From an uncultured Candidatus Saccharibacteria bacterium (GTDB lineage: Bacteria > Patescibacteriota > Minisyncoccia > Phycocordibacterales > SW-6-46-9), in contig CAZHOI010000001.1 in the NCBI GenBank assembly GCA_964534365.1, positions 55,560 to 119,559 on the forward strand: a DNA stretch of 64,000 nucleotides. The letters are read 5' to 3'. The notes under the pieces are model-generated. The model ran no database searches and was not told the origin of the DNA. It saw only the letters and a program-made list of their open reading frames with translations. How positions within the stretch are numbered: the stretch's first letter is position 1; every line of letters begins with the position of its first letter. Shown in pieces: positions 22,411 to 63,723 of the stretch. The translations under genes were made by a program, and so were the position numbers.

Positions 22411-22525
22411 TTAATAAATTGGTTACTGCAAAGTCTTCCAACATAACAGAAAATCCCATCGTAAAACAGAATTTTCTGCGAGGGATTACGTTTATTTCAA
22501 CACCCTTATTTGTAAAATGCCAAGC

Positions 22526-22971
22526 CTACTCCCCGGCCAATGTTTTTAAGAGGCTTGGACCAACAATTGCGTTGGGGACCTCAAAACTTAGGACCATTTG
22601 CGCTAGCTGATAATCATTGCCATAAGAGCCTTTACGCCAAATTACCAGCCCAGAGCTGCGGAAGCGTCCATAAGCCTCGCTATTTAGCATCTGGAAAAAA
22701 GTGTAGAAGCACCTTTGACCAGGTACCAAATGCTCTATCACTGACGTGCAACGATCTGGCTCAATTTCCATCCAGAATCAGATTCACGCAGAAGTTTTCG
22801 CACCTCTTGAATGTCCCACACTTCACCCTCGTCGGTTCCAATCCATTCTGCATACGGTTCAGATATATAATTCAGCATTAAATCATCCTTTTCTGCGAGG
22901 ATTTGCCAGTGCCATTTTAGAAATCTATTCACGTCTTGAAAAGCCTTATCAACAGGAGTAAGGTGCTTCAT
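22526..22971 (-). pseudogene. Possible frameshifted remnant gene (two adjacent minus-strand ORFs in different frames)
   Basis: ORFs 22738..22971 and 22526..22771 abut in different frames. No recognisable family. Sits within a ~0.9 kb poorly coding stretch downstream of crtI. Confidence 0.2.
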
Positions 22972-23082
22972 TTTATTAAGGGCTTGGAAGAACCTGGGCG
23001 ATCCAGGCTTCCGTTTATTGTCATGAATTTATGAAAACAAACAGAAACCTAGCAGCATCTATTTTGTTTTATACAACAAATC

Positions 23083-25504: not shown

Positions 25505-25615
25505 TTGAAATAGTATAACAATTATTTTGTTTAATTAGGTAGTTTTTATTGATTTGCAGATAACTAGTACTAGAACTAATTTATTGACCGTTACTAAATG
25601 ATGAATTTGTCATAA

Positions 25616-27169: not shown

Positions 27170-27171
27170 AT

Positions 27172-28260
27172 TTAGGTAATGAACACTAAAATCCGACCCA
27201 GGAATCGCTGCCACCAAGACGGGCGAACATCTTGCAGCATCTCTTCATCAACATAATAATAATCACCCCCCAACCATCGATTCACTTGTGAATTTATTAA
27301 CTCGACTTTGGAACCTTCTTCAAAGTCAATATTAAGTTCGTGATTAAATACCAGGCTAAGGTAATCAAGGTTGGTAGAACCAAAACTGGCCCAATTATCA
27401 GCCGTAACAATTTTGGCGTGGTTCATATGATCGGTGAAATAGATTTTGAGTCCCAGGGGTTGAAGCTGTTTTAAATACCACCACCGAGCCCAATCAGCCA
27501 AGCCATGATCGGTTTGTTTAGGAGTCAGTAATTTTATCTCTAATCCATCCTTTAATTTTTCTTTTAATACTCGATACAAACGAAGCGGAGGGGTAAAATA
27601 TGGTGTAACTAAGCATACTTTATTTTTGGCTACTAAAATATGTTCTGATATTTGCTCATAAACATGTCGATTACCAATACCTGGCGAGTTACCAACCAGC
27701 CTAATTTCAGGTGATAATTTGGAAAACGGTGCAATAGACCTTTTTCCGGTGACCAAGCGTTCATGCTGTTTAATTAATTCAGAATGCAGCTCTTCTCCAA
27801 ACTGATTTGAATCAATCCGCCAGTTATAATCTTGCCAATCACGAAACTCTTCTTTCATTACCGTACCACCAATCCAGCTAATTTGCTGATCAATTAATAG
27901 AACTTTGCGGTGATTCCTTACAAAAAAACGGATTGGAGTAGTGGCATTTCGCAACGGAATAGTTTGATAAAAATTCAGCTCTACTCCACTGTTTCGGAGC
28001 CGCTTTTTCAAACCTTTATTTTTCAACAAAGAAATACTGCCTACCGCGTCCAGATTAAGCGCCACATCTACTCCCTTTTCGGCCGCGGCGATAAATGCCT
28101 TCACAAATTCTAAACCAATTTGACCTTCACTAAATGACAAGAAAATAAATTGCTCGAACACTATTGATTTATTGGCTGCATTAATATCATCAAGCATTTT
28201 TTGCCAAGTTTCTTCAGCAAGATTAAAAACTTTTATTTGTGAATTAAGTAACTCGGACAT
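27172..28260 (-). CDS. cls: Phospholipase D-family protein (cardiolipin synthase-like)
   Basis: Two HKD motifs: HRKVLLID and HAKIVTADNWASFGSTNLD; 362 aa. Confidence 0.8.
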   Translation of the reverse strand: MSELLNSQIKVFNLAEETWQKMLDDINAANKSIVFEQFIFLSFSEGQIGLEFVKAFIAAAEKGVDVALNLDAVGSISLLKNKGLKKRLRNSGVELNFYQTIPLRNATTPIRFFVRNHRKVLLIDQQISWIGGTVMKEEFRDWQDYNWRIDSNQFGEELHSELIKQHERLVTGKRSIAPFSKLSPEIRLVGNSPGIGNRHVYEQISEHILVAKNKVCLVTPYFTPPLRLYRVLKEKLKDGLEIKLLTPKQTDHGLADWARWWYLKQLQPLGLKIYFTDHMNHAKIVTADNWASFGSTNLDYLSLVFNHELNIDFEEGSKVELINSQVNRWLGGDYYYVDEEMLQDVRPSWWQRFLGRILVFIT

Positions 28261-47200: not shown

Positions 47201-48340
47201 GTCGATTAGTTGACCGAGCATCTCAGTGTCCATATCTGTGTAAAAACTAAGAGTATTATACCAAGCCGGATATATCTCTTTCATAACTGGATCAGTGGCG
47301 AATTCAAATATAGCTTTTCGGGGTTCAGCTAAACGAGTTATCTCTTTAGCGGCAAGATATTCTTGAAACTCTACGTTTTCAAACTCAATCTTACCCGTAT
47401 CGTATTTGCTAGTTTGGAGCACTGTGTTCTCTAATAAAATATCTATACCAACTTGAGCAAGTACCATCAGTTTCAGATCGGAACAAATCTCGTCAAAAAA
47501 TGTCACTAGTTCATCACGAGTAATATTATTACTCTGATAAATTTCCATAGTCAGCGCTAGTTTCTCAAGCAATCTTTTTATAACAGGCTCTAAATCACGA
47601 ATTTGTTCATTTCGTCCTGACTCAAGAGATAACTTTGAATAGATAAAGTGTTCAAACAGATCATTACGAGAGAAGTTGGAAATATTTGTAACCCCTTTTG
47701 CTTTAACAAAATCTTCAAATAAAAATAGATAGCGTGGAATTTGGATTATACTCTGGCCATGAAAACGTAACGATCTATTAAGTAAATCTTCGACTTCACC
47801 CTCACTTAGACCGCCTTTTTCAAGGTATTCACTGATTTGACCAGGCGTAAATGGTTTAATTATTATAAATCTGTATGTAGGGAAAGAGCTTGCGTACTTA
47901 TCCATAAACACCCACCGACTTGATATATAGATATTGATTTTTGGATATTTCTCAGATATTTCTTGTATTTTTTTCAGCACGGAATTGAATTCTGAGCGAG
48001 GTACTTCATCTAAAGCATCTAGAAAAAGTGACTTGGTCTTTTTTGATGATTTACCAACAAACTTATCAATTTCATTAATAGCAGTGCGAGAGCTTAAAGG
48101 AATAAAACTTGTTGTATGTCCATCATGCTTAAGATGATTCTCCATCTTTTTAACCAATTCAGTTTTTCCTATACCTGGCTCACCAACCACAACAGTTCTC
48201 CTACCTTGAGCCAAACTACCTATAGGAGTTGGTTTTGCATCATAAAAAACAAAGTGGCCAAACTTATTGTATTGCTCTTTTGCCTCCCTAAAGGAAGATG
48301 AAACTTCAGTGATAGGAATTATGTATCTGTTGTCACTCAT
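44237..48340 (-). CDS. 1367-aa STAND/NACHT-like P-loop NTPase with C-terminal PD-(D/E)xK nuclease-like domain (candidate defence protein)
   Basis: Walker A VVVGEPGIGKTEL (aa ~50-62), Walker B SLFLDALDEV, followed by IYISSRW (the hhhSR element seen in NACHT NTPases). ~900-aa helical middle. C-terminal ...KRVDLIIRYGFVGPVIVEIKL... fits D-x12-E-x-K. Lys-rich tail. Confidence 0.6.
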   Translation of the reverse strand: MSDNRYIIPITEVSSSFREAKEQYNKFGHFVFYDAKPTPIGSLAQGRRTVVVGEPGIGKTELVKKMENHLKHDGHTTSFIPLSSRTAINEIDKFVGKSSKKTKSLFLDALDEVPRSEFNSVLKKIQEISEKYPKINIYISSRWVFMDKYASSFPTYRFIIIKPFTPGQISEYLEKGGLSEGEVEDLLNRSLRFHGQSIIQIPRYLFLFEDFVKAKGVTNISNFSRNDLFEHFIYSKLSLESGRNEQIRDLEPVIKRLLEKLALTMEIYQSNNITRDELVTFFDEICSDLKLMVLAQVGIDILLENTVLQTSKYDTGKIEFENVEFQEYLAAKEITRLAEPRKAIFEFATDPVMKEIYPAWYNTLSFYTDMDTEMLGQLIDFSGISGTAFKIVDESFINFLGRINPSLTPLEVKKRLFKDVINYHNNRLQWIPGQLTSALPAFFSSDLEKFLKQIVEKAETEQKDSTKYYVPLGNVSYILAYLLKSKVSIDKEYWREKLISYSSDAYENGVLPRHALYALAEFGDKTIVNDLPDITDTPDELVMREYVSLCTSLDPNSDRSINAFVKLIRANDLHGRYGIYEITEPQAIKKFLQIYIEDEQFRKEFLDDTSIFKDKDLKIVDHIKDGFDDEMQDLLFQAIVKSVHYSVSSTRGKSTFVRGIMKLLRDKNDDFFVVLINQLNSDEEGAHGLYFAQDFFEDLLRVEDVATFIDAMLAADEQQNVVMHTLTRIKLKGGQDAELIYEAGRSKLPTLYQEYEEARSQQQVNHDDANDDRILEAFKTSLCPAENMYMNRVFYDYNSNAEKLEKLMSSDDKYRFDTLIIQEALRHDPSSHGLTINSETDDGASRNYTASGAAIIFGDALKSAQLRKIEITPYRSNIAKFIPFAHTEQLQTVFELIPDFTEEELDPVVEIYSSRDNDLWKWQPDAFVDSVEQYSLTKALPILKDFIHQSDFRSRDRIKALNVSETLHSDENYLMSVFGMYKESTQEDEREIAIAANSLLITKHANRDAVNWRLDQVKSRVAATPTRRRSRFAHTVTPMEDEIRFGKEFAKPLMDLKYQGFEDEYLLLLDRALEVWAMGENHRSYAQYLWEITFAYFENLKEFGDYKPLKILEEKIAAIGTKKKGANWLAGHIVKLRLAYLNAIGKPIRYAEAIRRYNAARKYVDSRITTSADLTRELQDVFDSDLRKWIEGEGAYELILGGRVLDSKKQEYEKLIQKTITTQIENALLKRGIESEVLREPDLLDDKRVDLIIRYGFVGPVIVEIKLTSNKDIRGRKVEESKSYKSLQRYMDGYGASHGIFLIIVNEELKTLDTVKYTFMKIDGVSAISLDCTKYIPATSTNKSKEAVAKKTAVKKVVKGTVRKAKK

Positions 48341-48349
48341 GTATGCAAG

Positions 48350-48380
48350 TATACTAAAATCCCATGTTTTATACTAAAAT
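48350..48380. promoter_or_regulatory. Divergent promoter/operator region with 11-bp direct repeat TATACTAAAAT x2 (20-bp spacing)
   Basis: The 49-bp gap between the NTPase gene (minus) and the 146-aa gene (plus) contains tatactaaaat at 48350-48360 and 48370-48380. Confidence 0.45.
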
Positions 48381-48389
48381 AAGCTTGTT

Positions 48390-48830
48390 ATGGACATTAA
48401 ACTCTTTGATTTAGAACTCAATCAAGTCAATCCAGCTGATATGGATAAAAATGTTAAGTACGAAGTACTTCGTATCACTGATATAAACCTGCACGGTAAC
48501 CAAAAGCGCCCGACCCAGAACCAAGGCAAGAAAATTGTAAAAGCACTCGAACGATCTGAACCAGTCAGAACCTACCATAAACATAAAAATATTACCCAGG
48601 TAGACGAGAATACCATCACGTCAACACTAGATATGCTGGGTTTTTTGCATAATGATCCGCACTTTGATGCGTATATTAAAAAAGCTCAAGCAGCTGGTAA
48701 AGAAGTGCTGCTCGCATTCCCAGCAGACGGCGTACCCATCTTTCTTGGTAAAGATGCTGCTGAATTTATGGAGGGTACACCTGCTTATAGAAAAACTAGG
48801 TTTGCACAAAAGAAAGACAATGATGTATAA
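48390..48830 (+). CDS. Hypothetical 146-aa protein divergently transcribed from the NTPase-nuclease
   Basis: No recognisable motifs; mixed-charge soluble protein. Position suggests a partner or regulator of the neighbouring gene. Confidence 0.45.
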   Translation: MDIKLFDLELNQVNPADMDKNVKYEVLRITDINLHGNQKRPTQNQGKKIVKALERSEPVRTYHKHKNITQVDENTITSTLDMLGFLHNDPHFDAYIKKAQAAGKEVLLAFPADGVPIFLGKDAAEFMEGTPAYRKTRFAQKKDNDV

Positions 48831-48905
48831 TTGGGGCATCAATCAATAGATTGCTTGTGTACAAAAGCAAGTAGTGTATCGTCTCACGACCATGCCTATT
48901 TCGCA

Positions 48906-48977
48906 CAAGAAATAGTTAACCAATTCGGTTCTGCTATTTCGTGTGTGAGATAGGTATTTTCTATTTCATGCATTTTA
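48906..48977. promoter_or_regulatory. Three CTATTTC boxes (one perfect palindrome CTATTTCGCACAAGAAATAG) upstream of the ParB-methyltransferase operon
   Basis: ctatttcgcacaagaaatag (48906-48925), ctatttcgtgtgtgagatag (48944-48963, imperfect inverted), ctatttc (48971-48977). Confidence 0.45.
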
Positions 48978-48997
48978 TAACTTAAACAAGTTTTAAA

Positions 48998-50281
48998 ATG
49001 ACGAAAAAACTAATATGGCACAACGCCACCAAAACAGTGGATGAACTCATTCCGCAAACTATCAACCCTCGCACCATTACCAACAAACAAATGGACGATC
49101 TCAAGAAGAGTCTAAAGAAATTTGGACTGGCTGAGATACCAGCGATTGATGCCGACGGTACTATACTGGCTGGACATCAGAGAATTAAGGCACTTCAGCT
49201 TCTTGGTCGGGGTAGCGAAGAAATCGACATTCGTGTCCCTAATCGTAAGCTCACCAAAGCTGAAGCAAAGCAGTATCTCATTTCATCAAACAAGCTGGGC
49301 GGTGACTGGGATTTTGAAGCTCTTAAAAGCTTCGATATCGACCTGCTTGCCAACTCTGGCTTCGATGATCTTGAGTTAGCTGAATTTTGGGATAAGGACT
49401 TATCAACTGAAGACGACGAATTTGACGAAGATAAAGAAGTAGATAAAGCCAAGGATACCGATATTGAATCTGGTGATCTTTTGGTACTTGGGAAACATAA
49501 GTTGTTATGCGCAGATTGCACTGATACAAGTGCCGTACAAGCTCTCTTTGGTGATGACCGCACCAGCTTCATCTATTCAGACCCACCGTACAACATCAAC
49601 CTCGACTATGACAAAGGCGTTGGTAACAAAAGCTCGTACGGCGGTAAGGTCGACGACGACAAAAAACCAGAACAATACAAAATGTTTATCAAGCAGACAC
49701 TCGAGGCTGCCTTGTCTGTATCGACCAAAGATACTCATGTGATGTATTGGTGCGATGAAGCGTGGGTTTGGGTATTTCAGACACTGTATAACGAACTTGG
49801 AATTAAAAATCGACGCCTGAACCTATGGTTAAAAAATAATGCCAGCCCGACACCTCAAGTAGCATTTAACAAAGTCGTTGAATTTTGTGTATATGGCACA
49901 CTCGGCAGTCCATATCTATCCAAACAAACCAGAGACGTGACTGAGGTGCAAAACAAAGAACTGGGTACTGGCAATCAGCTACTCGAAGATGTATCTAATG
50001 TCTGGACAGCCAAGCGGCTAAAAGCCAGTGAATACGAACACCCAACTTCTAAGCCGCCGACACTGCATGAAAAAGCAATCAAACGTTGCACAAAATCAAA
50101 TGACATTATTTTCGATTCGTTTGCTGGTTCGGGCAGTACTTTGATTGCCGCTGAAGCACTTAAACGTCGAGTGTATACCATCGAGCAAAGTCCGATATTT
50201 TGTGAAGTTGTTCGTCGGCGATATGAGAAATTAACTGGGAAAAAGGTGCAGCTAATCAAACACTTCTATGAAAAAACCTAG
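48998..50281 (+). CDS. ParB-like nuclease domain fused to beta-class N6-adenine (DPPY) DNA methyltransferase
   Basis: N-terminal ParB/Srx motif ILAGHQRIKAL. MTase motif IV SDPPYNI precedes motif I FDSFAGSGST (beta-class permutation); 427 aa. Confidence 0.8.
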   Translation: MTKKLIWHNATKTVDELIPQTINPRTITNKQMDDLKKSLKKFGLAEIPAIDADGTILAGHQRIKALQLLGRGSEEIDIRVPNRKLTKAEAKQYLISSNKLGGDWDFEALKSFDIDLLANSGFDDLELAEFWDKDLSTEDDEFDEDKEVDKAKDTDIESGDLLVLGKHKLLCADCTDTSAVQALFGDDRTSFIYSDPPYNINLDYDKGVGNKSSYGGKVDDDKKPEQYKMFIKQTLEAALSVSTKDTHVMYWCDEAWVWVFQTLYNELGIKNRRLNLWLKNNASPTPQVAFNKVVEFCVYGTLGSPYLSKQTRDVTEVQNKELGTGNQLLEDVSNVWTAKRLKASEYEHPTSKPPTLHEKAIKRCTKSNDIIFDSFAGSGSTLIAAEALKRRVYTIEQSPIFCEVVRRRYEKLTGKKVQLIKHFYEKT

Positions 50282-50654
50282 ATATTCCAAACAGTTCCTT
50301 GAGGAACTAAAGAAGGTGCCAATTGTGCAAGTGGCGTGCGAGAAGACTGGAGTCTCTAGAAATACTGTCTATCGCTGGAAACGGGACGACAAAGACTTTG
50401 CCGCTGAATTTGATGACGCTTTAGCTGAAGGAGTTAATTACGTCAACGATATGAGTGAAAGTCAGCTATTACAGCTGATCAAAGATCAAAACTTCTCAGC
50501 GGTGCGTTTTTGGCTCAATAAACGCCATCCAGCATACAAGGAGAAGCTTGAAGTAGTGAACAAACATGAGGTTATTGAACTAACAGATAGTCAGAAGAAA
50601 ACTATCAAACAAGCTTTGCAATTAACCAATCCTAAGACAAAAGAACATGACTAA
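50268..50654 (+). CDS. Terminase small-subunit-like HTH protein
   Basis: HTH VACEKTGVSRNTVYRWKRDD near the N-terminus; 128 aa. Overlaps upstream gene by 14 nt and the terminase large subunit by 8 nt (coupled operon). Confidence 0.6.
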   Translation: MKKPRYSKQFLEELKKVPIVQVACEKTGVSRNTVYRWKRDDKDFAAEFDDALAEGVNYVNDMSESQLLQLIKDQNFSAVRFWLNKRHPAYKEKLEVVNKHEVIELTDSQKKTIKQALQLTNPKTKEHD

Positions 50655-52083
50655 CATTCCTAATCATCTCATAGAAAAGATTACTAATGACATCGCCGTT
50701 CGTCGTGAAATCACTAAAGACAGCCATCGGTACTTTATGGCGATTTATCTGCATGAATACATCAAGTATCCAAGTGCTTCATTTCACTCGGAAATGATTG
50801 AATTCACCGAGCGGACAGATGAAAAGCTGTTTGCAGTAGTGTCATTTCGAGGCTCTGCCAAATCAACCATCTTTTCACTGTCGTATCCAATTTGGGCTAT
50901 TCTCGGCAAACAACAGAAAAAGTTTGTGTTGATTATTTCTCGTACCCAAGTGCAAGCTCGACAATTGCTTCACAACATTAAGGTTGAACTAGAACGCAAC
51001 GATCTACTTAAACAAGACCTCGGACCATTTGAAGAACCACAAGATGAATGGCGCGCGGCTTCTATTGTGATACCGAAGTACGATGCTCGTATCATGGTGC
51101 TATCCGCTGATCAAAGTATGCGTGGACTGCGTCATAAGAGTCATCGTCCTGACCTTATTATCTGTGACGATATCGAAGATATCGCTTCAACCAAGACTCA
51201 AGATAATCGAGACAAGACATTCAATTGGTTTACCGGAGAAATCATCCCAGCTGGTGACTTGCATACAAAGATCATCTTGATTGGAAACCTTGTTCATGAC
51301 GACTCACTTATGGTGCGCCTACGTGAAAAAATTGAAAACAATGAAGTGTCAGGAGTGTTTAAAGCTTATCCGCTGATCAACAGTCACGGCGAGTGTTTGT
51401 GGCCAGAGAAATTTCCAGATGAAGCATCACTTGAAGCGTTACGAAAAGAGGTTATGAGCAAACAAGCATGGGAACGTGAGTATTTGCTCAAGATTATTCC
51501 AGACGATGAGCAGATCATAGATCCACTCTGGATTCGTACCTATCACGAGATACCAGCTGATATGAAGCGTCTTGGTGTATTTGTTGGCGTTGATCTAGCA
51601 ATTTCAGAGAAAACTACCGCTGATTATACCGCGATGGTTCCAGTACTAGCTTGTTCACGAAATAGTGAGTTGTATCTGTACGTCTTGCCTGAAATCGTAC
51701 ACGCTCGGATGAGTTTTCCAAAAACGTGTGAGCAGATACAGTATCTTGATCTCAAGCTTAACTCAAAATACAAAATGAATCCGGAGTTTATTATTGAGAA
51801 CGTGGCGTATCAAGATGCAGTGGTGCAGCACTTCGATAAAACATCGATTGATGTTGAGGGTGTGCGTCCGCTTGGTGACAAGCGAGAAAGACTGAACCTT
51901 GCTGCTACAGCTTTGAGTGATAAGCGAGTGTTCTTCCCGCATGAAGCTAGCGATAAACTCATTCAAGAGTTAGTCCACTTTGGCTCAGAAAAGCATGACG
52001 ACCTAGCAGATGCATTTTCGCTAGTGACACTAGAGGTGATGGTTAATAAGAAACCAGAGCGACCGGTAGTGTTTTTTGCGTAG
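50647..52083 (+). CDS. Phage terminase large subunit
   Basis: ATPase Walker A VVSFRGSAKST and Walker B DLIICDDIED, C-terminal RNase-H-like nuclease region (GVDLAISEKTTADYTA ... D residues); 478 aa. Confidence 0.8.
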   Translation: MTNIPNHLIEKITNDIAVRREITKDSHRYFMAIYLHEYIKYPSASFHSEMIEFTERTDEKLFAVVSFRGSAKSTIFSLSYPIWAILGKQQKKFVLIISRTQVQARQLLHNIKVELERNDLLKQDLGPFEEPQDEWRAASIVIPKYDARIMVLSADQSMRGLRHKSHRPDLIICDDIEDIASTKTQDNRDKTFNWFTGEIIPAGDLHTKIILIGNLVHDDSLMVRLREKIENNEVSGVFKAYPLINSHGECLWPEKFPDEASLEALRKEVMSKQAWEREYLLKIIPDDEQIIDPLWIRTYHEIPADMKRLGVFVGVDLAISEKTTADYTAMVPVLACSRNSELYLYVLPEIVHARMSFPKTCEQIQYLDLKLNSKYKMNPEFIIENVAYQDAVVQHFDKTSIDVEGVRPLGDKRERLNLAATALSDKRVFFPHEASDKLIQELVHFGSEKHDDLADAFSLVTLEVMVNKKPERPVVFFA

Positions 52084-52151
52084 CGAGTATGTGACGCTTT
52101 TAATACCCTGCATAGCTATGCAGGGTATTTTGGTCTGTCATTAATATAGAT

Positions 52152-53447
52152 ATGGAAGGAGATATATCTCTATCAGAAGCAAGAGTCAGATACTGTCTAT
52201 ACGCTAGAAAATCGACCGAATCAGACGAACAACAGGCGCTGTCGATAGATTCCCAGATTAAAGAAATGCAGGCCATTGCAGAGCGCTTGAAACTCAATGT
52301 GGTGGATGTGAAGCGTGAGTCACACTCTGCTAAAGAGTCTGGCAAGCGACCAGTCTTTAAAGAGTTGCTCGGAGATATCGCAAACGAAAAATACAACGGT
52401 ATTCTCACCTGGGCACCAGATCGTCTGTCTCGAAACGCTGGTGACCTTGGTACTGTGGTTGACCTCATGGACGCAGGGAAACTGATTCATATTCAAACGT
52501 ATGGACAAACCTTCTCAAACTCACCAAACGAGAAGTTCTTACTGATGATTTTGTGCTCCCAAGCCAAGCTCGAAAACGACAACAAGAGCATTAATGTGAA
52601 GCGTGGTATGCGAGCTAGGGTTGAAATGGGCCTATGGCCCTGCAAGCCACCGACTGGCTATACTAGATTTAAACGCATTGACCAGAAGTGCGAAGCAATC
52701 CTTGATCCTGAACGCGCACCAATGATTAAACAAATGTTTGAGAAGATAGGCTATGATGGCTGGACAGGAAGAAAGCTACACTTATGGCTGAGAGATGAGA
52801 TTGATTTTAGAACTGAAAACGGCAAACATCTTTGCCTCGGCAACCTCTATCGCATAATCCAAAACCACTTTTACTACGGCAGATTTGAGTATCCCAAGAA
52901 TTCTGGCAACTGGTATGACGGTGTCCATGAACCAATCATCACCAAGGAGCTGTTTAATATCGTGCAAGAACAGATCAAAAGCCAAATCCTCGAACCACGT
53001 TCAGCCCAAAAAGAGTTCGCTTTCACTAAAACCATGACCTGCGGTCTCTGTGGCTCAGGCATTACCGCTGATGAGAAGTTTAAAAAGCAAAAGAATGGCA
53101 ATATCCACCGCTACGTTTACTACAAATGTACCCGCACCCGCGATCCTCACTGTGACTGTGGGTTTATCAATGAAAATGACCTGATAACCCAACTACAAGC
53201 CCTCTTGGATGATATAGATATCAAAGTGGTACCGATGCGAGACAAGATCACCAACGAAGTTCGCCGCTACAAGCAATTTCAGCAGATGCTCTTAGGAAAT
53301 GAGACCAAGATTTCGGTCAAAGATATTGATATCCGCAATTACTGTAAGTTTATCTTGCAAGAAGGAGACCTAGAAGAAAAGCGTGATTTTCTTAGATGTT
53401 TGAAGAGTAACGTCTATCTAAACAAAAAAGTAATCAAACTTCAGTAG
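52152..53447 (+). CDS. Large serine recombinase (integrase)
   Basis: Resolvase catalytic domain YARKSTESDEQQALSIDSQ with the nucleophile Ser, recombinase domain, C-terminal zinc ribbon CGLCGSG...YYKCTRTRDPHCDC; 431 aa. Confidence 0.85.
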   Translation: MEGDISLSEARVRYCLYARKSTESDEQQALSIDSQIKEMQAIAERLKLNVVDVKRESHSAKESGKRPVFKELLGDIANEKYNGILTWAPDRLSRNAGDLGTVVDLMDAGKLIHIQTYGQTFSNSPNEKFLLMILCSQAKLENDNKSINVKRGMRARVEMGLWPCKPPTGYTRFKRIDQKCEAILDPERAPMIKQMFEKIGYDGWTGRKLHLWLRDEIDFRTENGKHLCLGNLYRIIQNHFYYGRFEYPKNSGNWYDGVHEPIITKELFNIVQEQIKSQILEPRSAQKEFAFTKTMTCGLCGSGITADEKFKKQKNGNIHRYVYYKCTRTRDPHCDCGFINENDLITQLQALLDDIDIKVVPMRDKITNEVRRYKQFQQMLLGNETKISVKDIDIRNYCKFILQEGDLEEKRDFLRCLKSNVYLNKKVIKLQ

Positions 53448-53482
53448 TTGCGACAAAGAGTAAGTATGATATATTCAACTAT

Positions 53483-53806
53483 ATGGTTGAACAAAGTATT
53501 AATTTAGACACTGTCTTTCAGGCTCTCGCCGACCAAACACGGCGGGATATCTTAAAGCGGGTGTCACAAGCCGAGCTTTCCATAAGCAAGCTCGCTGAAC
53601 CATACAAAATGTCCTTTGCAGCAATTGCTAAACATGTGGGTGTGCTCGAGCGTGCCAATTTGGTTGCTAAACGTCGTGAAGGCAAACAACAAATTATCAG
53701 TGTTGTGCCAAAGACCGTTGCCGTCGCCACGACCCATCTTGAGTTGTATGAAAAGATGTGGAATGAACGCTTCAATGCATTGGAGGTACTCCTTAATGAA
53801 AAATAA
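53483..53806 (+). CDS. ArsR-family transcriptional regulator
   Basis: ALADQTRRDILKRVSQAELSISKLAEPYKMSFAAIAKHVGVLERANLV = ArsR/SmtB winged HTH; 107 aa. Confidence 0.85.
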   Translation: MVEQSINLDTVFQALADQTRRDILKRVSQAELSISKLAEPYKMSFAAIAKHVGVLERANLVAKRREGKQQIISVVPKTVAVATTHLELYEKMWNERFNALEVLLNEK

Positions 53807-54251
53807 TATGAAAACACTTACCTATTCAATTCAAATCAACAAACCACAAGAGTTTGTTTTTAATAAGCTTATAGACAAGTCTGTATATCCAGGCTGGTCC
53901 AAAGCCTGGGGTGAAGGAATGATTTACGATGGTGACTGGAAAGAGGGCGGTCACATTTCCTTTTTTGATAAAGAAAGAGGCGGTACGAAGGTAGTGATAG
54001 AAGAATATAAACCATACCAGTGTATCAAAACCAAGCACATAGCGATGGTCAATCCTCAAAACGAAGAAATATCTCTAACTGACGATATGATGAAGAAATG
54101 GATGGGTACGCGAGAGGATTACTATTTTATAGCCAACGACGATAGAACCACCACATTTGAAGTCATTATGGTTACCGATGAGGCTTTTGAAGAGATGATG
54201 AATGCGTGGTCACAAGCGCTCGTGTATTTCAAAGAAATTTGTGAAGCCTAA
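53796..54251 (+). CDS. SRPBCC (AHSA1/Aha1-like) domain protein
   Basis: Track ORF 53616..54251 overlaps arsR; the in-frame Met at 53796 (MKNNMKTLTYSIQINKPQEFVFNKL...) gives a ~151-aa SRPBCC-sized protein. Confidence 0.6.
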   Translation: MKNNMKTLTYSIQINKPQEFVFNKLIDKSVYPGWSKAWGEGMIYDGDWKEGGHISFFDKERGGTKVVIEEYKPYQCIKTKHIAMVNPQNEEISLTDDMMKKWMGTREDYYFIANDDRTTTFEVIMVTDEAFEEMMNAWSQALVYFKEICEA

Positions 54252-54289
54252 AGTAAAAATTATTAAACCCTAAGTTAAGTACAAAATAT

Positions 54290-54766
54290 ATGGCAACACT
54301 AAAAGTAACTGCTCCAGAACACTCACAAGACATTATTGGTGAGGTCGAAATTAACGCCCCTTTAGAGAAAGTATTTGAAGCCTTTATTAACAAAGATTTA
54401 TTCATTAAATGGTTTTGTCGTGGCAACACTGTCACAGTTAACCAGTTTGAAGGTAAGGACGGTGGCACGTGGGATATTGCTGAGCGAGACCCTGAAGGAA
54501 ATGAATGGGGCTTCTACGGTGTTTTTCACGAAATTGCTCCAAGTGAACGAATCATTTGGACGTTTGAGTTTATGGGTATACAAGAGCGAGGTCATGTCTC
54601 ACTCGAACGTATGGAGTTCACCGACGCCGGTGACGGCACGACTAAAATGAAAAGTATTTCTACCTTCCTCACCAAAGAAGACCGTGATGGCATGGTCGCC
54701 AGTGGTATGGAGGCTGGCTGGCGACAGTCAATTGAAGCCTTAGAAGAGGTGGTAAATGAGAAATAA
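54290..54766 (+). CDS. SRPBCC (AHSA1-like) domain protein
   Basis: INAPLEKVFEAFINKDLFIKWF... typical Aha1/SRPBCC start; 158 aa. Confidence 0.65.
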   Translation: MATLKVTAPEHSQDIIGEVEINAPLEKVFEAFINKDLFIKWFCRGNTVTVNQFEGKDGGTWDIAERDPEGNEWGFYGVFHEIAPSERIIWTFEFMGIQERGHVSLERMEFTDAGDGTTKMKSISTFLTKEDRDGMVASGMEAGWRQSIEALEEVVNEK

Positions 54767-55244
54767 TAAATCTATGAAAAAACTAACTATCGAACGAACC
54801 TTTAATCATCCAATTGAAAAAGTCTGGGCAGCCTGGACAACTCCTGAGCTACTAGCACAGTGGTTCACCCCAACCGGAATGACCAATACGCTTGCTACCG
54901 CTGACGTGGAAGTCGGCGGCCTCTTTCGGTACTGCTTTAAGAGCGTTGAAGATGGGAAAGAGTACTATGGTCGTGGACGTTACCACACCATCACACCGAT
55001 GACGCGCCTCTCATACTACGACTCATTTACTGATGAGACCGGTGCTGACGTGCCAGCTTCACATTATGGAGCGGGTAGCGACCAGATTGAAGAGACGTTG
55101 GTAGATATTAGGTTTGAAGATTTAGGTGAACAAACTAAGATGACGATTGAGATGGAAAATCCATATGCTGACAACCCAGAAATGGCTGCACAAATGATGG
55201 CTGGCTGGAACAGTATGTTTGATAAGCTTGCAAACCTTCAATAA
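54756..55244 (+). CDS. SRPBCC (AHSA1-like) domain protein
   Basis: ERTFNHPIEKVWAAWTTPELLAQWF; 162 aa. Confidence 0.65.
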   Translation: MRNNKSMKKLTIERTFNHPIEKVWAAWTTPELLAQWFTPTGMTNTLATADVEVGGLFRYCFKSVEDGKEYYGRGRYHTITPMTRLSYYDSFTDETGADVPASHYGAGSDQIEETLVDIRFEDLGEQTKMTIEMENPYADNPEMAAQMMAGWNSMFDKLANLQ

Positions 55245-55743
55245 TATGTTTTTGTTCGGGAAAGAAAAAACTCTGCAATTTGAAAGAGAGTTTAATGCTC
55301 CAGTTGAAAAGGTCTGGGATGCCTTTACTATCCCGACAATCCTAACACAGTGGTGGGGACCAGAAGGAACGACGATTCCAGAGTGCGAGATGGATGTAAA
55401 AGTTGGAGGTAAAATTAGAATTGTAATGGAAGCTGGTAAAAGTATGGGTTCGTATGCTGGTACCCGCTGGCCACTTGAGGGTCACTTCACGTTAGTAAAG
55501 CAACATGAACAATTACAATATGAAGCACTCGCTTGGACTGAAGGAAGGAAAGACACTACTACGATAGATCAAATAAATGATGTAACTCTTACAATAAATG
55601 GCGAAAAAACTAATATGGTTTTCATTGTCACTATTAAGAAGACGGGTATTAAAGCCAGTATGGCAGCTTTTGGTATGAAAATGGGGTATGCATCGCAATT
55701 CAAGAAATTAGAGCAATTATTTAATGCAGACAATAATCAATAA
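55219..55743 (+). CDS. SRPBCC (AHSA1-like) domain protein
   Basis: EREFNAPVEKVWDAFTIPTILTQWW; 174 aa (start possibly at internal Met). Confidence 0.65.
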   Translation: MISLQTFNNMFLFGKEKTLQFEREFNAPVEKVWDAFTIPTILTQWWGPEGTTIPECEMDVKVGGKIRIVMEAGKSMGSYAGTRWPLEGHFTLVKQHEQLQYEALAWTEGRKDTTTIDQINDVTLTINGEKTNMVFIVTIKKTGIKASMAAFGMKMGYASQFKKLEQLFNADNNQ

Positions 55744-55746
55744 TAT

Positions 55747-56103
55747 ATGAAAATTACTACAAAAATTATTCAGATACTTCTTGCGCTGTGGTTTATAGCT
55801 GGAGCGATGTATATGATGGGAAATTTCGAGTTCTTAGCCAGTGAAGCCGCCAGTACCTGGTCACAGTTGTTTTGGGTAACGCTTGGTGTGGTTCAAATAT
55901 TACTCGCACTCACTTTACTAATTGGAGCATTTTGGAAGAAAGCGCAGTCGTATGTTCCTGTGGTTGGACTGGGACTGATAATCATTACGCTTGGTGGATT
56001 ATATTGGTACAGTGCGTATAAAGGCTTTTCAGGGTCACTCTGGGCAATAGTTCCAGCCTTACTACTAGGTTGGGTAGTATACTTTTATAAAGCTAAATCA
56101 TAA
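55747..56103 (+). CDS. DoxX-like membrane protein
   Basis: Four hydrophobic helices, 118 aa, typical DoxX size and pattern. Confidence 0.55.
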   Translation: MKITTKIIQILLALWFIAGAMYMMGNFEFLASEAASTWSQLFWVTLGVVQILLALTLLIGAFWKKAQSYVPVVGLGLIIITLGGLYWYSAYKGFSGSLWAIVPALLLGWVVYFYKAKS

Positions 56104-56390
56104 TGACAAAGACAATCACTAAAACCACCGCCTATCACGACGTTCCAAAAACTGTGTTAGCTGTACTGAAGAAAGATATGCAGCTCACTGAGATTTGGAA
56201 CGGTTTGACCGATATCCAACGCAACGAGTGGTGTTGTTACGCTGAGACTGGCAAGAAAGAAGAAACTCGAGCAGAACACCTCCGCCGGTTTGAGAGCGAC
56301 ATGAAAGCCGGTAAAAAGACGCCATGTTGTTGGCCTGGTTGTCCACATCGCAGGCCGAAAGCCGCTAAGTGGTTTGGTACTAAAAAATAA
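56103..56390 (+). CDS. YdeI/OmpD-associated family protein
   Basis: LTDIQRNEWCCYAETGKKEETRAEHLRRFESDMKAGKK resembles the YdeI-family conserved core; 95 aa. Confidence 0.55.
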   Translation: MTKTITKTTAYHDVPKTVLAVLKKDMQLTEIWNGLTDIQRNEWCCYAETGKKEETRAEHLRRFESDMKAGKKTPCCWPGCPHRRPKAAKWFGTKK

Positions 56391-56392
56391 CT

Positions 56393-56758
56393 ATGACAAA
56401 TCACAATGTAAAGACTGTAAATGAGTTTATAAAAGAATCTGCAAAAGATGCACGACCTCACCTCAAAGAGCTTCAAGCGCTAATACAAGCAACAGTGAAG
56501 GGTGTTGAAGAGACAATTAGTTATGGTAAGCCTTACTACAAACTAAACGGTCATTTGGTTGGTTTTGATGCCTATAAGCAACATATTGGTTTTGAAATAT
56601 ATGAAGGTCAACTCGATGAGGAACATAGGTCTAAACTCGAAGAGAAAGGGTATAAAACCGGGAGCAAAGGATTTCAGATAAGTTTTGATCAAAAGGTGCC
56701 AGTTGCTATAGTAAAGAAAGTCGTTAAGCGTCAGGTCTCTGTAAATAAAAACAAATAA
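56393..56758 (+). CDS. DUF1801 (YdhG-like) domain protein
   Basis: VNEFIKESAKDARPHLKELQALIQATVKGVEETISYGKPYYKLNGHLVGFDAYKQHIGF pattern of DUF1801; 121 aa. Confidence 0.6.
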   Translation: MTNHNVKTVNEFIKESAKDARPHLKELQALIQATVKGVEETISYGKPYYKLNGHLVGFDAYKQHIGFEIYEGQLDEEHRSKLEEKGYKTGSKGFQISFDQKVPVAIVKKVVKRQVSVNKNK

Positions 56759-56777
56759 CAACATTTTCACCCAACAC

Positions 56778-56808
56778 AAAAAACAGCCTCAAGTGAGGCT
56801 GTTTTTTG
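56778..56808 (+). terminator. Rho-independent terminator ending the island operon
   Basis: aaaaa-cagcctca-agtg-aggctg-tttttt. Confidence 0.75.
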
Positions 56809-56865
56809 TGTTGTTTGAGCTAGTGTTTTTGAGTCTAATTACGACCCATAAACAGCTAGCTGTCA

Positions 56866-56940
56866 ATGGTGACCCTACGGGGAATCGAACCCCGGTTTTC
56901 GCCGTGAGAGGGCGATGTCCTAGCCGCTAGACGATAGGGC
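56866..56940 (-). tRNA. tRNA-Glu (anticodon CTC), with encoded CCA
   Basis: Reverse complement GGCCCTATCGTCTAGCGGCTAGGACATCGCCCTCTCACGGCGAAAACCGGGGTTCGATTCCCCGTAGGGTCACCA. Anticodon stem TCGCC/GGCGA, loop CT-CTC-AC, T-loop GGTTCGATTCC. Confidence 0.85.
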
Positions 56941-57080
56941 CGTCTTTTATCATAAATAATTTTAGAAAATTATTTATTTTGGGCATAGATTTGCCACCAA
57001 ATCTATTAGCCTTGTGTAGAAATTTTAGTTTACCAAAGTATAAATATCAAATATTAAACACTGAAAGTTTGTGGCAATAC

Positions 57081-60830: not shown

Positions 60831-60990
60831 AATTGGTTACCAATTAGGATTTACTGGTAGTTATCCACATTTCCTACAGTTGTGAATTCATCCCACTTTA
60901 TCCCACTTGGTATTCATATTGTAGCACTAGGGTTAATAGCGATGCATTAGTTATCCCCTTTTATAAGTTTAGTTATGAAAAACCGCCGCA

Positions 60991-61125
60991 TCAGGAGATA
61001 CGGCGATTGGTGGGTGGCGGCGGGTTCTCGCTCTCGCAGCTCTCGTCCCGGCGGGCAAAGCCCATCACAAGCATGAGAAGCAGAAAAAGAACAATTACCA
61101 ACACGAGGAGGATTTCGGGGATCAT
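60991..61125 (-). CDS. 44-aa single-TM peptide (GC-rich block)
   Basis: MIPEILLVLVIVLFLLLMLVMGFARRDESCESENPPPPTNRRIS; below the ORF-track size cutoff. Confidence 0.3.
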   Translation of the reverse strand: MIPEILLVLVIVLFLLLMLVMGFARRDESCESENPPPPTNRRIS

Positions 61126-61185
61126 CGCGGTTGGGGTCTAGTGTAGTTTTAATCTAGCATACTTCTAAAGGATTTATTTTTGTTG

Positions 61186-61230
61186 AAAAAGAAAAACCCG
61201 CCGGTTGCTGGAGTGGCAACACGACGGGTA
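61186..61230 (-). terminator. Rho-independent terminator (minus strand) after the 41-aa peptide gene
   Basis: Minus-strand acccgtcg-tgttgccactccagcaac-cggcgggt followed by tttttc. Confidence 0.5.
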
Positions 61231-61248
61231 GGTGGTAGGAAGGAAGAA

Positions 61249-61374
61249 TCATTCGTACATTCTTCCGGTCGGATCCAACTCATCCAATGCTCTATTGGTG
61301 TGGTGGATCACTATACTCCACATGGTTAGGAACGCTCCCACGGCAAGGGTGCCAATAACAGTGGCTAATTTCAT
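61249..61374 (-). CDS. 41-aa single-TM peptide (GC-rich block)
   Basis: MKLATVIGTLAVGAFLTMWSIVIHHTNRALDELDPTGRMYE. Confidence 0.3.
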   Translation of the reverse strand: MKLATVIGTLAVGAFLTMWSIVIHHTNRALDELDPTGRMYE

Positions 61375-61530
61375 AGCGAGGGTCAGGTTGTGAAGCTTAA
61401 TTATGCCATAAATTGTATAGTATGTAAAAAAAACCCCGGCGGCGCTGTGCGTCGTCGGGGACCGTGGCAGTTCGTAAACTCCAAGGTATTACGTGATTTT
61501 ACGCTCACGTTAAGCGTTTTCAGTTGCGGA

Positions 61531-62619
61531 CTACTGTCTCCAAGGAAAGAACGTCGCTCCCACCTGCACATACGGTCCACCAGTGGGGGCGGCGTAGTAC
61601 AGCGAAGTGACGTGGCGGTACCCCGCCCCAATTGTGAAGTCCACGTCAGGCAGGGTTTCTACACCAACTTGCCCTCCGAGAGAGAAACTCACGTGGGTAC
61701 GACCGATGCCGTCACGAACGGACTCGGTACGGGTTCCGCCGATGCCGACGCTCGGTCCAGCGCTAATCTCGGAGTTGGCGAAGTGGTCGAGCAAATCGTA
61801 GGTGAGATTCACCTCAACGCTCAACAACTCCTCTGCGAACTCTGTGTTGCACTGTCCCGCAGAGGCGGGGTATGCACCCAGCTCGCCGCCGCAGGTTTCG
61901 GCGTAACCGATACCTACGGCATCGTATGCCAGGGACTTGAGCCCGCCATATCCGAACTGGACACCGCCGCCGAAGTTGTTGTACCACGGGGCAACCTCTT
62001 TCGCCTCTTGCGGCTTGGGAGCCGGCGGAGGCGGGGTCGGACGCGGCTGGCGACGCTCGGCGACAAGCGCCGGGCGAACCATCACAAGGTCGCAGTCTTC
62101 TCTCGCACAGGTCTGGGGGATCAAATCCACCCGACGTTGCCTAGCGTGCTCGAATTGAAACCCTTCGCGGTCCTTGGCGATTTTAGCGTCCTCAGGCTCG
62201 AGGAAGCCGGTGACCGGCTCGTCGACGTTTACGTCGACGTTGCAGTTACGCACGCCGAGCTTGTACAGCTCGTTGCGCACGAACTCGGCGCGGTCGCGGG
62301 CCAGCTGCTGAGCGTTTACGCTACGCAGCTCAACCTCCGACAGGCGGGGCGAGATGATGTAGCTGGTCTGGGGGCAAGCCCGCAAGATCTCAGCCACATC
62401 CTCAAGAACGTATGGGTTCTCTGCTGTGGAGTTTCCTTCGCTGAAGAAAAGCTCCTCCAGCTCGATGATCTGCCGGCATTGTGCCGAAGTCATCACAACG
62501 TTCTCGATCACGTCAGCCTGAGGCTGGCGCGGGACTATCTGGTCCGTCTGCGCCGTCGCAGGAACGGCGGTCAGGAGGACGGCGCAGAGCGCCAGGAAAA
62601 ACAGGTTGAGGTGGTTCAT
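61531..62619 (-). CDS. Secreted OmpA-like domain protein with Gly-rich C-terminal beta-rich region
   Basis: Signal peptide MNHLNLFFLALCAVLLTAVPATAQT. OmpA-family peptidoglycan-binding motif NAQQLARDRAEFVRNELYKLGV (N..LS..RA..V...L...G). Pro-rich linker, then a G/alternating-hydrophobic C-terminus ending in F-P-W. The antisense 419-aa ORF is Arg-rich nonsense. Confidence 0.5.
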   Translation of the reverse strand: MNHLNLFFLALCAVLLTAVPATAQTDQIVPRQPQADVIENVVMTSAQCRQIIELEELFFSEGNSTAENPYVLEDVAEILRACPQTSYIISPRLSEVELRSVNAQQLARDRAEFVRNELYKLGVRNCNVDVNVDEPVTGFLEPEDAKIAKDREGFQFEHARQRRVDLIPQTCAREDCDLVMVRPALVAERRQPRPTPPPPAPKPQEAKEVAPWYNNFGGGVQFGYGGLKSLAYDAVGIGYAETCGGELGAYPASAGQCNTEFAEELLSVEVNLTYDLLDHFANSEISAGPSVGIGGTRTESVRDGIGRTHVSFSLGGQVGVETLPDVDFTIGAGYRHVTSLYYAAPTGGPYVQVGATFFPWRQ

Positions 62620-62991
62620 GAGGGGGCGCCGCGGGGGCGCGGGGTATGAGTGATGACGAGGTTAGGCCAGTCACAAGTGACGAGCCGACCCTGGTTCACT
62701 GACCTCTAGCACTAGTCTATTTCTAGACAGCAACTGAAAAGTCAAAGAACTGGGGTCGAGTTGCATTATTGCAACCGACTCTATCCATAATAATACATTA
62801 GAATCTGTATTTTGTCAAATAGCTTTACCTCTTTTATTACCACTATTACTACGTTAATGAAGTATGAGAAAAGCCTGCTGGAACGTGTATCGAAAACCAG
62901 GCAGGCTAGAATCCGCAGTGTTCACCGCGAATCAGAAGGAACATTATTTTCGACTTTAGTTTCCCTCTTCTCTGGGCGCCTTACAGGACGC

Positions 62992-63462
62992 CTAATCGGT
63001 GATGATCTGGATTCCCCAGACCTTATCACCTATCTTAATCCGGCCGATCTCCTCACCAGGCTGTGCCCGGTGAGTGCGAGTAGCGGTCCAGTAGTAGAGC
63101 TGGTCATCCTTGGAGGTTGACCAGTTACCGATCCCATAGAGAGTTACCTCTCCGGTGAGGCCGGTAATCTTCTGGACGGCATCGCGGCTGAGCTCCACGT
63201 ACTGAGGGTCGCCCAGCGGTTGGGCCACTTTGATGTTGCCCTCAGTCACTGCCGGAGGGCCGTCAGGCGGAGGCGTATCAGTCGAGTCGGTCGGAGCCGG
63301 CTCGTCGTCACAGCACTGCTGCATGTCCGGCCCAGCGATGGTGTCGCTGCAGCCGGTCAGAAGGCCGCCGAGGGCGAGCATCCACCAGAAAGCGCCGAAA
63401 GCGATCACCCGGTAGATGGTGCGGCTTCCGAAGAGGCCTTTTTTGTCGATGACGTGTGCCAT
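62992..63462 (-). CDS. Predicted lipoprotein (GC-rich block)
   Basis: Signal peptide with lipobox LLTGC, Pro/Asp-rich linker; 156 aa. Confidence 0.45.
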   Translation of the reverse strand: MAHVIDKKGLFGSRTIYRVIAFGAFWWMLALGGLLTGCSDTIAGPDMQQCCDDEPAPTDSTDTPPPDGPPAVTEGNIKVAQPLGDPQYVELSRDAVQKITGLTGEVTLYGIGNWSTSKDDQLYYWTATRTHRAQPGEEIGRIKIGDKVWGIQIITD

Positions 63463-63723
63463 GATCGTATATGCCGGCTTTGTCTGAAGAGACTATCCGG
63501 CAGCGTATGAGAAAAGAGAGACTTGTCGAGGTGCGTTTGCACTTGATGGGCCACTATGGATGGCGGGCTGTAGACAGCGGTTTAACGGCTATCTAGAGCG
63601 TGCCACCAGTGGTCACCTCTAACTACTAATATACCAGATTTAGAATATTTGTCAAGTTATTTAGTATTAAAAAACCACCATTGCTGGCAGCTTTTTAAAG
63701 GTTCTTTTATTAAATAACCTTGT

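Follow-up and report, generated by a model that had tools for sequence, protein, structure and literature searches.

The 64,000-nucleotide (nt) stretch analysed here (the window; positions 55,560 to 119,559 of contig CAZHOI010000001.1, from an uncultured Candidatus Saccharibacteria bacterium) carries, directly upstream of mraZ, a GC-rich block of ~2.7 kb (60975-63660) which encodes a predicted secreted protein of 362 amino acids (aa), a putative 156-aa lipoprotein and two small hydrophobic peptides. In this species and in a second one that carries an orthologous locus, the GC-richness is coupled with self-complementarity at synonymous sites, and this excess of predicted RNA folding is a new finding of the follow-up analysis. 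In our judgement the block is probably an envelope-protein locus that is native and restricted to its lineage, in which high GC in the gene bodies is maintained together with an unusually strong self-complementarity of the mRNAs, rather than the horizontally transferred islet or the mis-joined contig that an earlier note on this DNA had offered as its two options.

Composition, synteny and predicted folding

In 1-kb windows over the 64 kb, GC content was 0.35-0.48 up to 61000 and 0.52-0.56 in the last three windows. At 300-nt resolution two sub-blocks stood out (61400-62750, GC 0.53-0.66; 62900-63650, GC 0.53-0.63), and between them (62600-63050) GC fell to 0.43-0.45, which bears out the switch to high GC after mraZ, in two sub-blocks with an AT-rich spacer, described in the earlier note. 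Gene-body GC was ~0.60-0.65, against a background of 0.35-0.46. Codon-position GC was 0.66/0.44/0.73 for the 362-aa open reading frame (ORF; GC 0.612, third-position GC [GC3] 0.733) and 0.60/0.48/0.74 for the 156-aa ORF (GC 0.605, GC3 0.739), a pattern that marks the minus-strand frames as coding, while GC3 was 0.25-0.49 (about 0.35) across 40 host ORFs and overall host GC about 0.40; the claimed difference in composition from the host is thus real. Intergenic segments within the block had a GC of 0.43-0.47, so that GC-richness is restricted to the gene bodies. The dinucleotide signature of the block, normalised for GC (delta* = 104), was inside the host range (host windows 66 ± 29, maximum 146).

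A word-indexed search of 5.8 billion clusters matched the 362-aa and 156-aa proteins only with themselves, and no donor-side homolog was found among ~15 billion proteins, the same mat metagenomes included; looking up the taxonomic affinity of the OmpA-like (362-aa) and lipoprotein ORFs, as had been proposed, accordingly pointed to no donor clade. The 156-aa ORF could be assigned to none of the families in Pfam, NCBIfam, PHROG or PADLOC. When 1.84 billion representatives were scanned exhaustively with HMMER, the 362-aa protein had one relative, P0005 (349 aa, E=1e-4; pairwise BLASTP 1e-12, overall identity 29%), and a profile built from both orthologs yielded no further members. The two have in common a signal peptide, six invariant cysteines, the LRACP-T and LARDRAE motifs and a C-terminal domain rich in glycine and aromatic residues, and on these sequence comparisons they make up a two-member orphan family. 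Both are rich in Gly, Ala, Arg and Pro, with an arginine-to-lysine ratio of ~4:1 vs ~1:1 in host proteins.

The gene of P0005 lies on L033, a 3.3-kb European Nucleotide Archive (ENA) contig, directly upstream of mraZ (MraZ 65% identical to that of the window), which is followed by rsmH. The order is a partial GC-rich ORF, an AT-rich spacer, the 349-aa gene, a second AT-rich spacer, mraZ and rsmH, with a GC3 of 0.75 in the partial upstream ORF, 0.70 in the 349-aa gene, 0.46 in mraZ and 0.35 in rsmH. The sole homolog, which is just as GC-rich, therefore occupies the matching site in a related, AT-rich organism, and the same genes in relatives were what the earlier note had named as the mark of native genes with atypical composition. 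A metagenome scan with MraZ reached only two further, short relatives (L034 and L035, MraZ 62% and 59% identical); both are very short and show a small GC-richer ORF and a terminator before a conserved mraZ promoter.

At fourfold degenerate sites of conserved residues, third-base agreement between the two species was at chance level (observed/expected 9/6.7 for mraZ, 7/8.6 for rsmH and 12/11.9 for the OmpA-like gene), which indicates that synonymous sites are saturated between them. Given this saturation and a GC3 that is still 0.70-0.73 in both copies, GC looks maintained, not left over; by the standard amelioration argument, a GC3 inherited passively from an ancestral transfer would be expected to have drifted toward the host value of ~0.35.

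We compared the minimum free energy (MFE) of each native coding sequence with that of synonymous-codon shuffles, which keep the protein and the codon usage, in two runs:

362-aa gene: z -6.5 / -6.05; native MFE -498.5 vs a shuffle mean of about -440 kcal/mol
156-aa gene: z -5.2 / -5.9; native MFE -207.3 vs -175.4 kcal/mol
349-aa gene of L033: z -4.2 / -4.0; native MFE -487.9 vs about -449.5 kcal/mol
partial ORF of L033: z -2.5 (one run); native MFE -137.7 vs -119.3 kcal/mol

By the same measure, 16 host genes had a mean z of about -0.4 (SD about 1.1, minimum -2.07), and 10 GC-rich genes (GC 0.58-0.65) of GC-rich genomes lay between +0.3 and -2.3, with one at -4.0. Shuffling within 40-codon bins, which keeps local GC3, gave z of -6.2, -3.5 and -3.9 for the 362-aa, 156-aa and 349-aa genes, and dinucleotide-preserving shuffles gave -6.1, -5.5 and -6.5 in the same order, vs -1.1 for rsmH. 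The excess was distributed along the genes, and the sense strand was somewhat more structured than the antisense strand in all four. Short perfect hairpins in the block were not above chance (3 observed vs 1.3 expected), so that the excess folding is diffuse and does not stem from a set of elements like repetitive extragenic palindromes. Most simply, it would reflect selection for structured transcripts, serving either stability or translation control.

Genes and regulatory elements

The features of the block, from its far edge to the mraZ promoter, are as follows (window coordinates; minus strand unless stated):

63628..63655, sigma-70 promoter of the lipoprotein gene, TTGACA-16-TATATT with a TG extension, 11/12 matches; the second TTAGAAT...ATTTGTCAA motif of the earlier note
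62992..63462, putative 156-aa lipoprotein, an orphan whose long signal peptide has the lipobox LLTGC at its end; from ORF and composition
62790..62818, sigma-70 promoter of the 362-aa gene, TTGACA-17-TATTAT, 11/12 matches; the first repeated motif of the earlier note, conserved in L033 (positions 521-549)
62755..62779, 5'-proximal stem-loop of the 362-aa gene leader, the near-palindrome GTCGAGTTGCATTATTGCAACCGAC, ~4 nt past the inferred transcription start
62620..62783, 5' leader of the 362-aa gene, ~164 nt, its start inferred from the position of the -10 element; first ~65 nt conserved with L033
61531..62619, gene of the 362-aa secreted protein; from ORF, GC3 and the single homolog P0005
62220..62239, no strand, perfect 20-nt palindrome CGTCGACGTTTACGTCGACG within the 362-aa coding sequence, where two independent assemblies end
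61426..61460, terminator-like GC-rich imperfect hairpin with an 8-T run, 3' of the 362-aa gene
61400..61428, promoter-like site TTTACA-17-CATAAT with TG, 5' of the 41-aa ORF, 10/12 matches
61249..61374, small hydrophobic ORF of 41 aa (MKLATVIGTLAVGAFLTMWSIVIH...), from the ORF list; putative peptide
61185..61228, terminator-like hairpin and T-run after the 41-aa ORF
60991..61125, small hydrophobic ORF of 44 aa (MIPEILLVLVIVLFLLLMLVMGFARRDES...), GC3 0.71, also gene-called in the Joint Genome Institute (JGI) assemblies
60977..61005, terminator-like hairpin (9-bp stem) with a T-run, overlapping the end of the 44-aa ORF; block edge on the mraZ side
60831..60976, AT-rich mraZ promoter region with GTGGGAT, GTGGATAA and GGGGATAA boxes, conserved in L033, L034 and L035; native boundary of the block

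All block genes are co-directional with mraZ-rsmH-ftsL-ftsI (60830 down to 57137). Three of the four units have their own near-consensus, AT-rich sigma-70 promoter of host type, and three of the four end in a terminator-like hairpin. The hairpin and T-run sites were found by eye in the sequence, and a simple terminator scan flagged none of them. Several elements listed in the earlier note reappear here under a firmer description: its two TTAGAAT...TTTGTCAA motifs are present and read, on the minus strand, as the two near-consensus promoters; its near-palindrome lies in the AT-rich spacer, as it had said; and its two tiny hydrophobic peptides with a terminator are the ORFs of 44 and 41 aa, each followed by a hairpin and a T-run.

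The regulatory region of the 362-aa gene is orthologous between the two species. Its promoter and the first ~65 nt of its leader aligned with those of the 349-aa gene at z = 9.5 against shuffles, and the stem-loop of the leader, which folds at -14 kcal/mol (z = -3.2), has in L033 the same layout of stem, bulge and loop, both bases being different in four of the six inner pairs (GTTGCA/TGCAAC in the window vs GATCGC/GCGATC in L033). A long leader with a compensatorily conserved 5' stem-loop would fit control at the mRNA level. The E. coli ompA mRNA, according to work by Emory and Belasco, reportedly has a long 5' untranslated region whose 5'-terminal stem-loop stabilises the transcript; the leader described here resembles it in its length of ~160 nt, in a stable stem-loop a few nt from the inferred start and in the compensatory changes. 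In contrast to ompA, with which it has no sequence relationship, the whole coding region of the block is also predicted to be hyper-structured, and is GC-rich. The leader is C-rich directly before the ATG and has no Shine-Dalgarno sequence. Rfam, searched at the gathering cut-off and at E <= 1, returned nothing credible in the block or in L033-L035.

On the opposite strand, a 419-aa ORF (61390-62649, plus strand) spans the whole 362-aa gene. We rejected it as spurious: its frame mirrors the GC3 of the sense frame, L033 has no conserved counterpart, and an ORF of this kind is a by-product of coding sequence with high GC. Its presence could be the reason that records of the 362-aa protein come only from JGI and not from the NCBI copy of the genome.

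The 156-aa ORF carries the lipobox named in the earlier note: judged by inspection, ...WWMLALGGLLTGC-SDT follows a basic n-region (KK, R) and fits the pattern [LVI][ASTVI][GAS]C. The two small ORFs are plausibly membrane peptides, to judge from their hydrophobic sequences; consisting of a transmembrane helix and a charged tail, and placed directly upstream of the mraZ promoter, they resemble type I toxin-like membrane peptides. Small-ORF content varies among the relatives, with a 37-aa transmembrane ORF in L035 (63-176), a 45-aa ORF without a transmembrane segment in L034 (53-190) and none in L033.

The mraZ promoter region aligned among the relatives with a score of 49, vs a shuffled mean of 18. 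It contains GTGGGAT twice (plus-strand ATCCCAC at 60890-96 and 60900-06), GGGGATAA once (60951-58) and GTGGATAA once (plus-strand TTATCCAC, 60861-68), the last of which also fits the DnaA-box consensus TTATCCACA, together with a TACAAT -10 element at 60918-23. The boxes, kept in all three relatives (L033 2040-2190, L034 260-390, L035 235-320), are probably MraZ operator repeats.

The 362-aa protein and its probable host

The 362-aa protein is laid out as a signal peptide (residues 1-24), a cysteine-containing OmpA-like domain (~50-170), a proline-rich linker (~188-205) and a beta domain rich in glycine and aromatic residues (~206-362). The OmpA-like domain is probable, as suggested by family and structure profiles. 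Pfam OmpA (PF00691) scored 15.0 bits (E=0.031) with the 362-aa protein and 23.1 bits (E=9.6e-5) with P0005, the gathering score being 27.2, and in a profile search of the PDB OmpA-like domains made up 15 of the 16 best matches (E = 0.005-0.4; best, M. tuberculosis Rv0899, E=0.0047). The OmpA-type motif of the earlier note therefore agrees with consistent family and PDB matches, at Pfam scores that all lie below the cut-off. Residues ~55-150 of both orthologs align with known OmpA-like proteins (PF00691: the C-domain of E. coli OmpA, Pal, ArfA/Rv0899), including the L-A/S-x-x-R-A helix and a final R-x-R-V-like strand, and share a K/R-A-C-P-D/E motif with Rv0899. Peptidoglycan is contacted in such domains by the Asp of G-x-T-D, which contacts diaminopimelate, and by the Arg of L-S-x-x-R-A. 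The Arg-bearing helix (LARDRAE) is kept in both orthologs, whereas the T-D position has no aligned Asp (SPRLSE / QGQRAE), acidic residues following it; the six conserved cysteines, the missing clear counterpart of the G-x-T-D Asp (SPRL / QGQR) and the sub-gathering scores set the orthologs apart from the family. An AlphaFold2 model of the full protein gave the order E-H-E-H-H-E over residues 52-130, compatible with the beta/alpha/beta/alpha/beta-beta order of an OmpA-like fold, in a poor model (predicted local distance difference test [pLDDT] score 38); that of the C-domain reached a pLDDT of 37, and both models are unusable.

A C-terminal outer-membrane barrel is only possible on the sequence evidence. 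Like the small outer-membrane beta-barrels (PF13505; the OmpA N-domain, OmpX and OmpW type), the C-domain is rich in glycine and aromatic residues, and 7-8 alternating hydrophobic/polar stretches were seen by inspection over its ~155 residues; the ortholog, moreover, ends in Phe. Unlike them, it scored far below the cut-off with Pfam OMP_b-brl (17.7 bits, E=0.0043; cut-off 28.7), a C-domain profile matched none of the PDB sequences, the 362-aa protein ends in ...PWRQ, and the host is probably monoderm. P0005 had a sub-threshold Autotransporter beta-domain match (E=0.031). Of the beta-rich C-terminus ending in aromatic residues that the earlier note had described, the composition holds, whereas the termini read ...GATFFPWRQ in the 362-aa protein, with the aromatics near but not at the end, and ...GLTLGRRF in P0005.

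Compared with E. coli OmpA, the order of the modules is reversed, the OmpA-like domain of the 362-aa protein being N-terminal to the beta domain. This order (signal peptide, wall-binding domain, linker, beta-rich C-domain) is that of the OmpM/SlpA-type tethers of Terrabacteria, which have an N-terminal wall-binding S-layer homology (SLH) module and a C-terminal porin barrel (PMC10628300, bioRxiv 10.1101/2021.05.31.446380). The likeness is one of description only, as OmpM has SLH and a larger barrel where the 362-aa protein has an OmpA-like module and a C-domain of only ~155 residues; the OmpM system is reported as lost in the Chloroflexi/candidate phyla radiation (CPR) clade (bioRxiv 10.1101/2021.05.31.446380). 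The 362-aa protein would be exported by the Sec pathway, stabilised by disulfides between its six conserved cysteines and associated with the cell wall through its divergent OmpA-like module, and its beta-rich C-terminal domain may be presented at the surface.

The host is probably a member of the CPR/Patescibacteria, a monoderm group. Among the loci compared, FtsI and RsmH had their best matches in Saccharibacteria (327 and 205 bits), Paceibacterota coming next for FtsI, and the GTDB species representatives reached by an RsmH scan included no close relative (best identity 41-43%). The CPR and Chloroflexi have been described as a monoderm clade (bioRxiv 10.1101/2021.05.31.446380). No outer-membrane or beta-barrel assembly machinery (BAM) genes were seen among ~40 scanned window ORFs and 8.6 kb beyond, a span of 72 kb which is too little to settle the envelope type. 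What the earlier note had called envelope features of diderm bacteria are secreted, envelope-type proteins, but lipoproteins, which all bacteria have, and OmpA-like domains are not specific to diderms, and only the weakly supported barrel would be.

The block lies between the gene of a 1006-aa Big_9/cadherin-type surface protein (adhesin) and the mraZ promoter of the dcw cluster; aspS, greA, pbp2 and mreDCB follow beyond the window, past the 1006-aa gene. The other window genes are ordinary chromosomal ones (dnaE, dnaB, uvrABC, tgt, aminoacyl-tRNA synthetases, carotenoid genes, a photolyase-related gene). A light-related cluster (20324-27217) with phytoene synthase, a phytoene-desaturase-like amine oxidase, a photolyase-related protein and a UbiA prenyltransferase, and with uvrABC nearby, fits a microbial-mat origin; a carotenoid pathway would be unusual if the host is CPR. 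A probable integrated element or defence island (44237-56941) sits beside tRNA-Glu (56867-56941), separated from the GC-rich block by the dcw genes. It contains a 1367-aa AAA-type protein, a DNA methylase (48998-50281), a large serine recombinase (52152-53447), three AHSA1-domain genes and a helix-turn-helix regulator, and its GC3 is slightly raised (0.41-0.49).

Origin of the block and its meaning

We infer that selection for highly structured transcripts, which would probably be stable or translation-regulated, keeps the block genes GC-rich against the AT-biased mutation of the host. Several observations weigh against this reading or limit it. Strong structure in coding sequences is not unique to the block, as the control gene at z = -4.0, the rsmH of an Anaerolineaceae metagenome-assembled genome (L021 9997-10933), makes clear. 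The antisense strands of the block genes are strongly negative too, which leaves room for a DNA-level cause or a self-complementary origin, and the folding excess is itself a predicted MFE, not a measured structure. The start-codon region is C-rich and structured, which speaks against simple high expression. Proteins rich in GC-encoded residues and arginine are also the expected remnant of a GC-rich donor. The saturation test used 26-45 sites per gene, so that it gives only a lower bound on divergence. Comparison was with a single orthologous locus of 3.3 kb and with two relatives whose sequences are very short, and conservation in the lineage accordingly rests on two species; between these, the partial 99-aa ORF of L033 has no detectable homology to the 156-aa lipoprotein.

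The main rival is an old transfer from an unsampled, possibly diderm donor of ~60% GC, which took place before the two species split and was followed by slow amelioration, or which occurred repeatedly into one and the same spot upstream of mraZ, the mRNA structure being incidental. We hold it to be unlikely, though it accounts directly for a GC3 of 0.73 vs ~0.35 in the host, for an amino-acid usage of GC-rich type, for the weak likeness to OmpA and outer-membrane barrel families, unexpected in a monoderm host (its closest sampled relatives belong to the CPR, a clade described as monoderm; bioRxiv 10.1101/2021.05.31.446380), and for a second gene that is not the same in the two species, as would be usual for a variable region. 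Like classical genomic islands and islets, the block deviates sharply in GC and codon usage (GC 0.61, GC3 0.73-0.74) and contains orphan genes. Unlike them, it lacks an integrase, a tRNA target and repeats at its flanks: neither direct nor inverted repeats, nor att-like ones, were found at its borders, no tRNA lies within 4 kb, the block holds no recombinase (the nearest, at 52152-53447, is beyond the dcw genes), and tblastn against phages and plasmids, a viral-contig scan, PHROGs and PADLOC gave no matches. An island should also be absent from the same site in relatives and have donor homologs, whereas this locus occupies the same site in L033 and the protein searches yielded no donor. Its genes are separated by AT-rich promoters of host type, its promoter and leader are orthologous across species, its dinucleotide signature lies in the range of the host, its GC persists through saturation of synonymous sites, by which a passive relic should have decayed, and the excess folding is specific to its genes and not seen in ordinary GC-rich genes. 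Taken as a recent transfer, the islet of the earlier note is not supported, in view of the syntenic GC-rich ortholog and the missing mobility genes, border repeats and donor; more generally, conserved synteny, an orthologous regulatory region, the lack of donor and mobility functions and a GC kept through saturation weaken any reading of the block as an islet. The idea of a diversity-generating retroelement was dropped, as sensitive blastn of the block against all DNA compared found no paralogous or template-like repeats.

GC-biased gene conversion at a recombination hot spot of a fast-evolving surface locus, with no selection on RNA structure, appears improbable. The OmpA-like protein is only 29% identical between the species, vs 65% for MraZ, as is typical of diversifying surface proteins, and in both of them each of the three codon positions has a raised GC. 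Yet gene conversion predicts neither an excess of self-complementarity over composition-keeping shuffles nor a GC confined to coding bodies with AT-rich promoters between them, population variation is not visible, all contigs being 100% identical, and the GC3 difference of +0.38 exceeds the effect usually ascribed to the process in bacteria.

An assembly chimera, in which foreign GC-rich reads were mis-joined into an AT-rich contig, is effectively refuted, and mis-assembly of the block is excluded. The abrupt change of composition and the breaking of several assemblies within the GC-rich gene had spoken for it; however, the junction on the mraZ side is identical base for base in six assemblies (JGI 3300040788, 3300040789, 3300040798 and co-assembly 3300040801, Logan SRR7428105 and SRR7428122) and that on the far side in five, so that both are reproduced in at least five independent assemblies from different assemblers and samples. 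The JGI sets, from brackish microbial mats, were built with MEGAHIT, sample by sample and as a co-assembly (PMC8605020). In six independent assemblies contig ends cluster inside the 362-aa gene, at 61662, 61921, 61940, 62049 and 62223 (twice), and at another site at 62955. The broken contigs match the window at 100% to their last base and none has an alternative continuation, which indicates fragmentation, not strain variants. The 362-aa ORF runs continuously across all break points, and its ortholog is the same two-domain protein beside mraZ elsewhere, in a second species with the same arrangement. High GC and palindromes are known trouble spots in short-read assembly; as the breaks fall where GC is highest and at the perfect 20-nt palindrome, the site of the end seen twice (62223), they are probably due to effects of GC and structure on short-read assembly. 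A separate site, the heptamer tandem repeat (GGTATTT)n at ~57040-57076, just 3' of ftsI, either varies in its number of units or is difficult to assemble: the co-assembly (L001) is there 28 nt (four units) longer than the window, and three other contigs stop aligning at 57076 (two run on for ~50 nt, one for 22 nt).

On the reading of the block as a native envelope locus under selection for transcript structure, the wider claim would be that such selection, not foreign origin, makes and keeps a gene-sized GC-rich island in an AT-rich genome, in a CPR-like, presumably monoderm lineage whose orphan envelope mRNAs are GC-rich, hyper-structured and headed by a covarying 5' hairpin, one of these mRNAs encoding an OmpA-like module fused to an outer-membrane-type beta domain; taken as a whole, this is doubtful, and we put it forward only tentatively. 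Where GC departs locally from its surroundings, horizontal transfer or contamination is the routine reading, and such stretches are frequently cut out of metagenome-assembled genomes. The block points to gene-specific selection on transcript structure as a further source of compositional islands, and is thus a caution for GC-based binning and for detectors of horizontal transfer. If the beta domain is a barrel, it would act in a cell with no outer membrane of its own, for instance inserted in that of a host or partner cell, or would be a vestige of a lost one. Such an OmpA-like module, joined to what may be an outer-membrane-type beta domain in a lineage placed near the CPR, is relevant to the ways in which reduced, probably monoderm bacteria construct or make use of cell envelopes.

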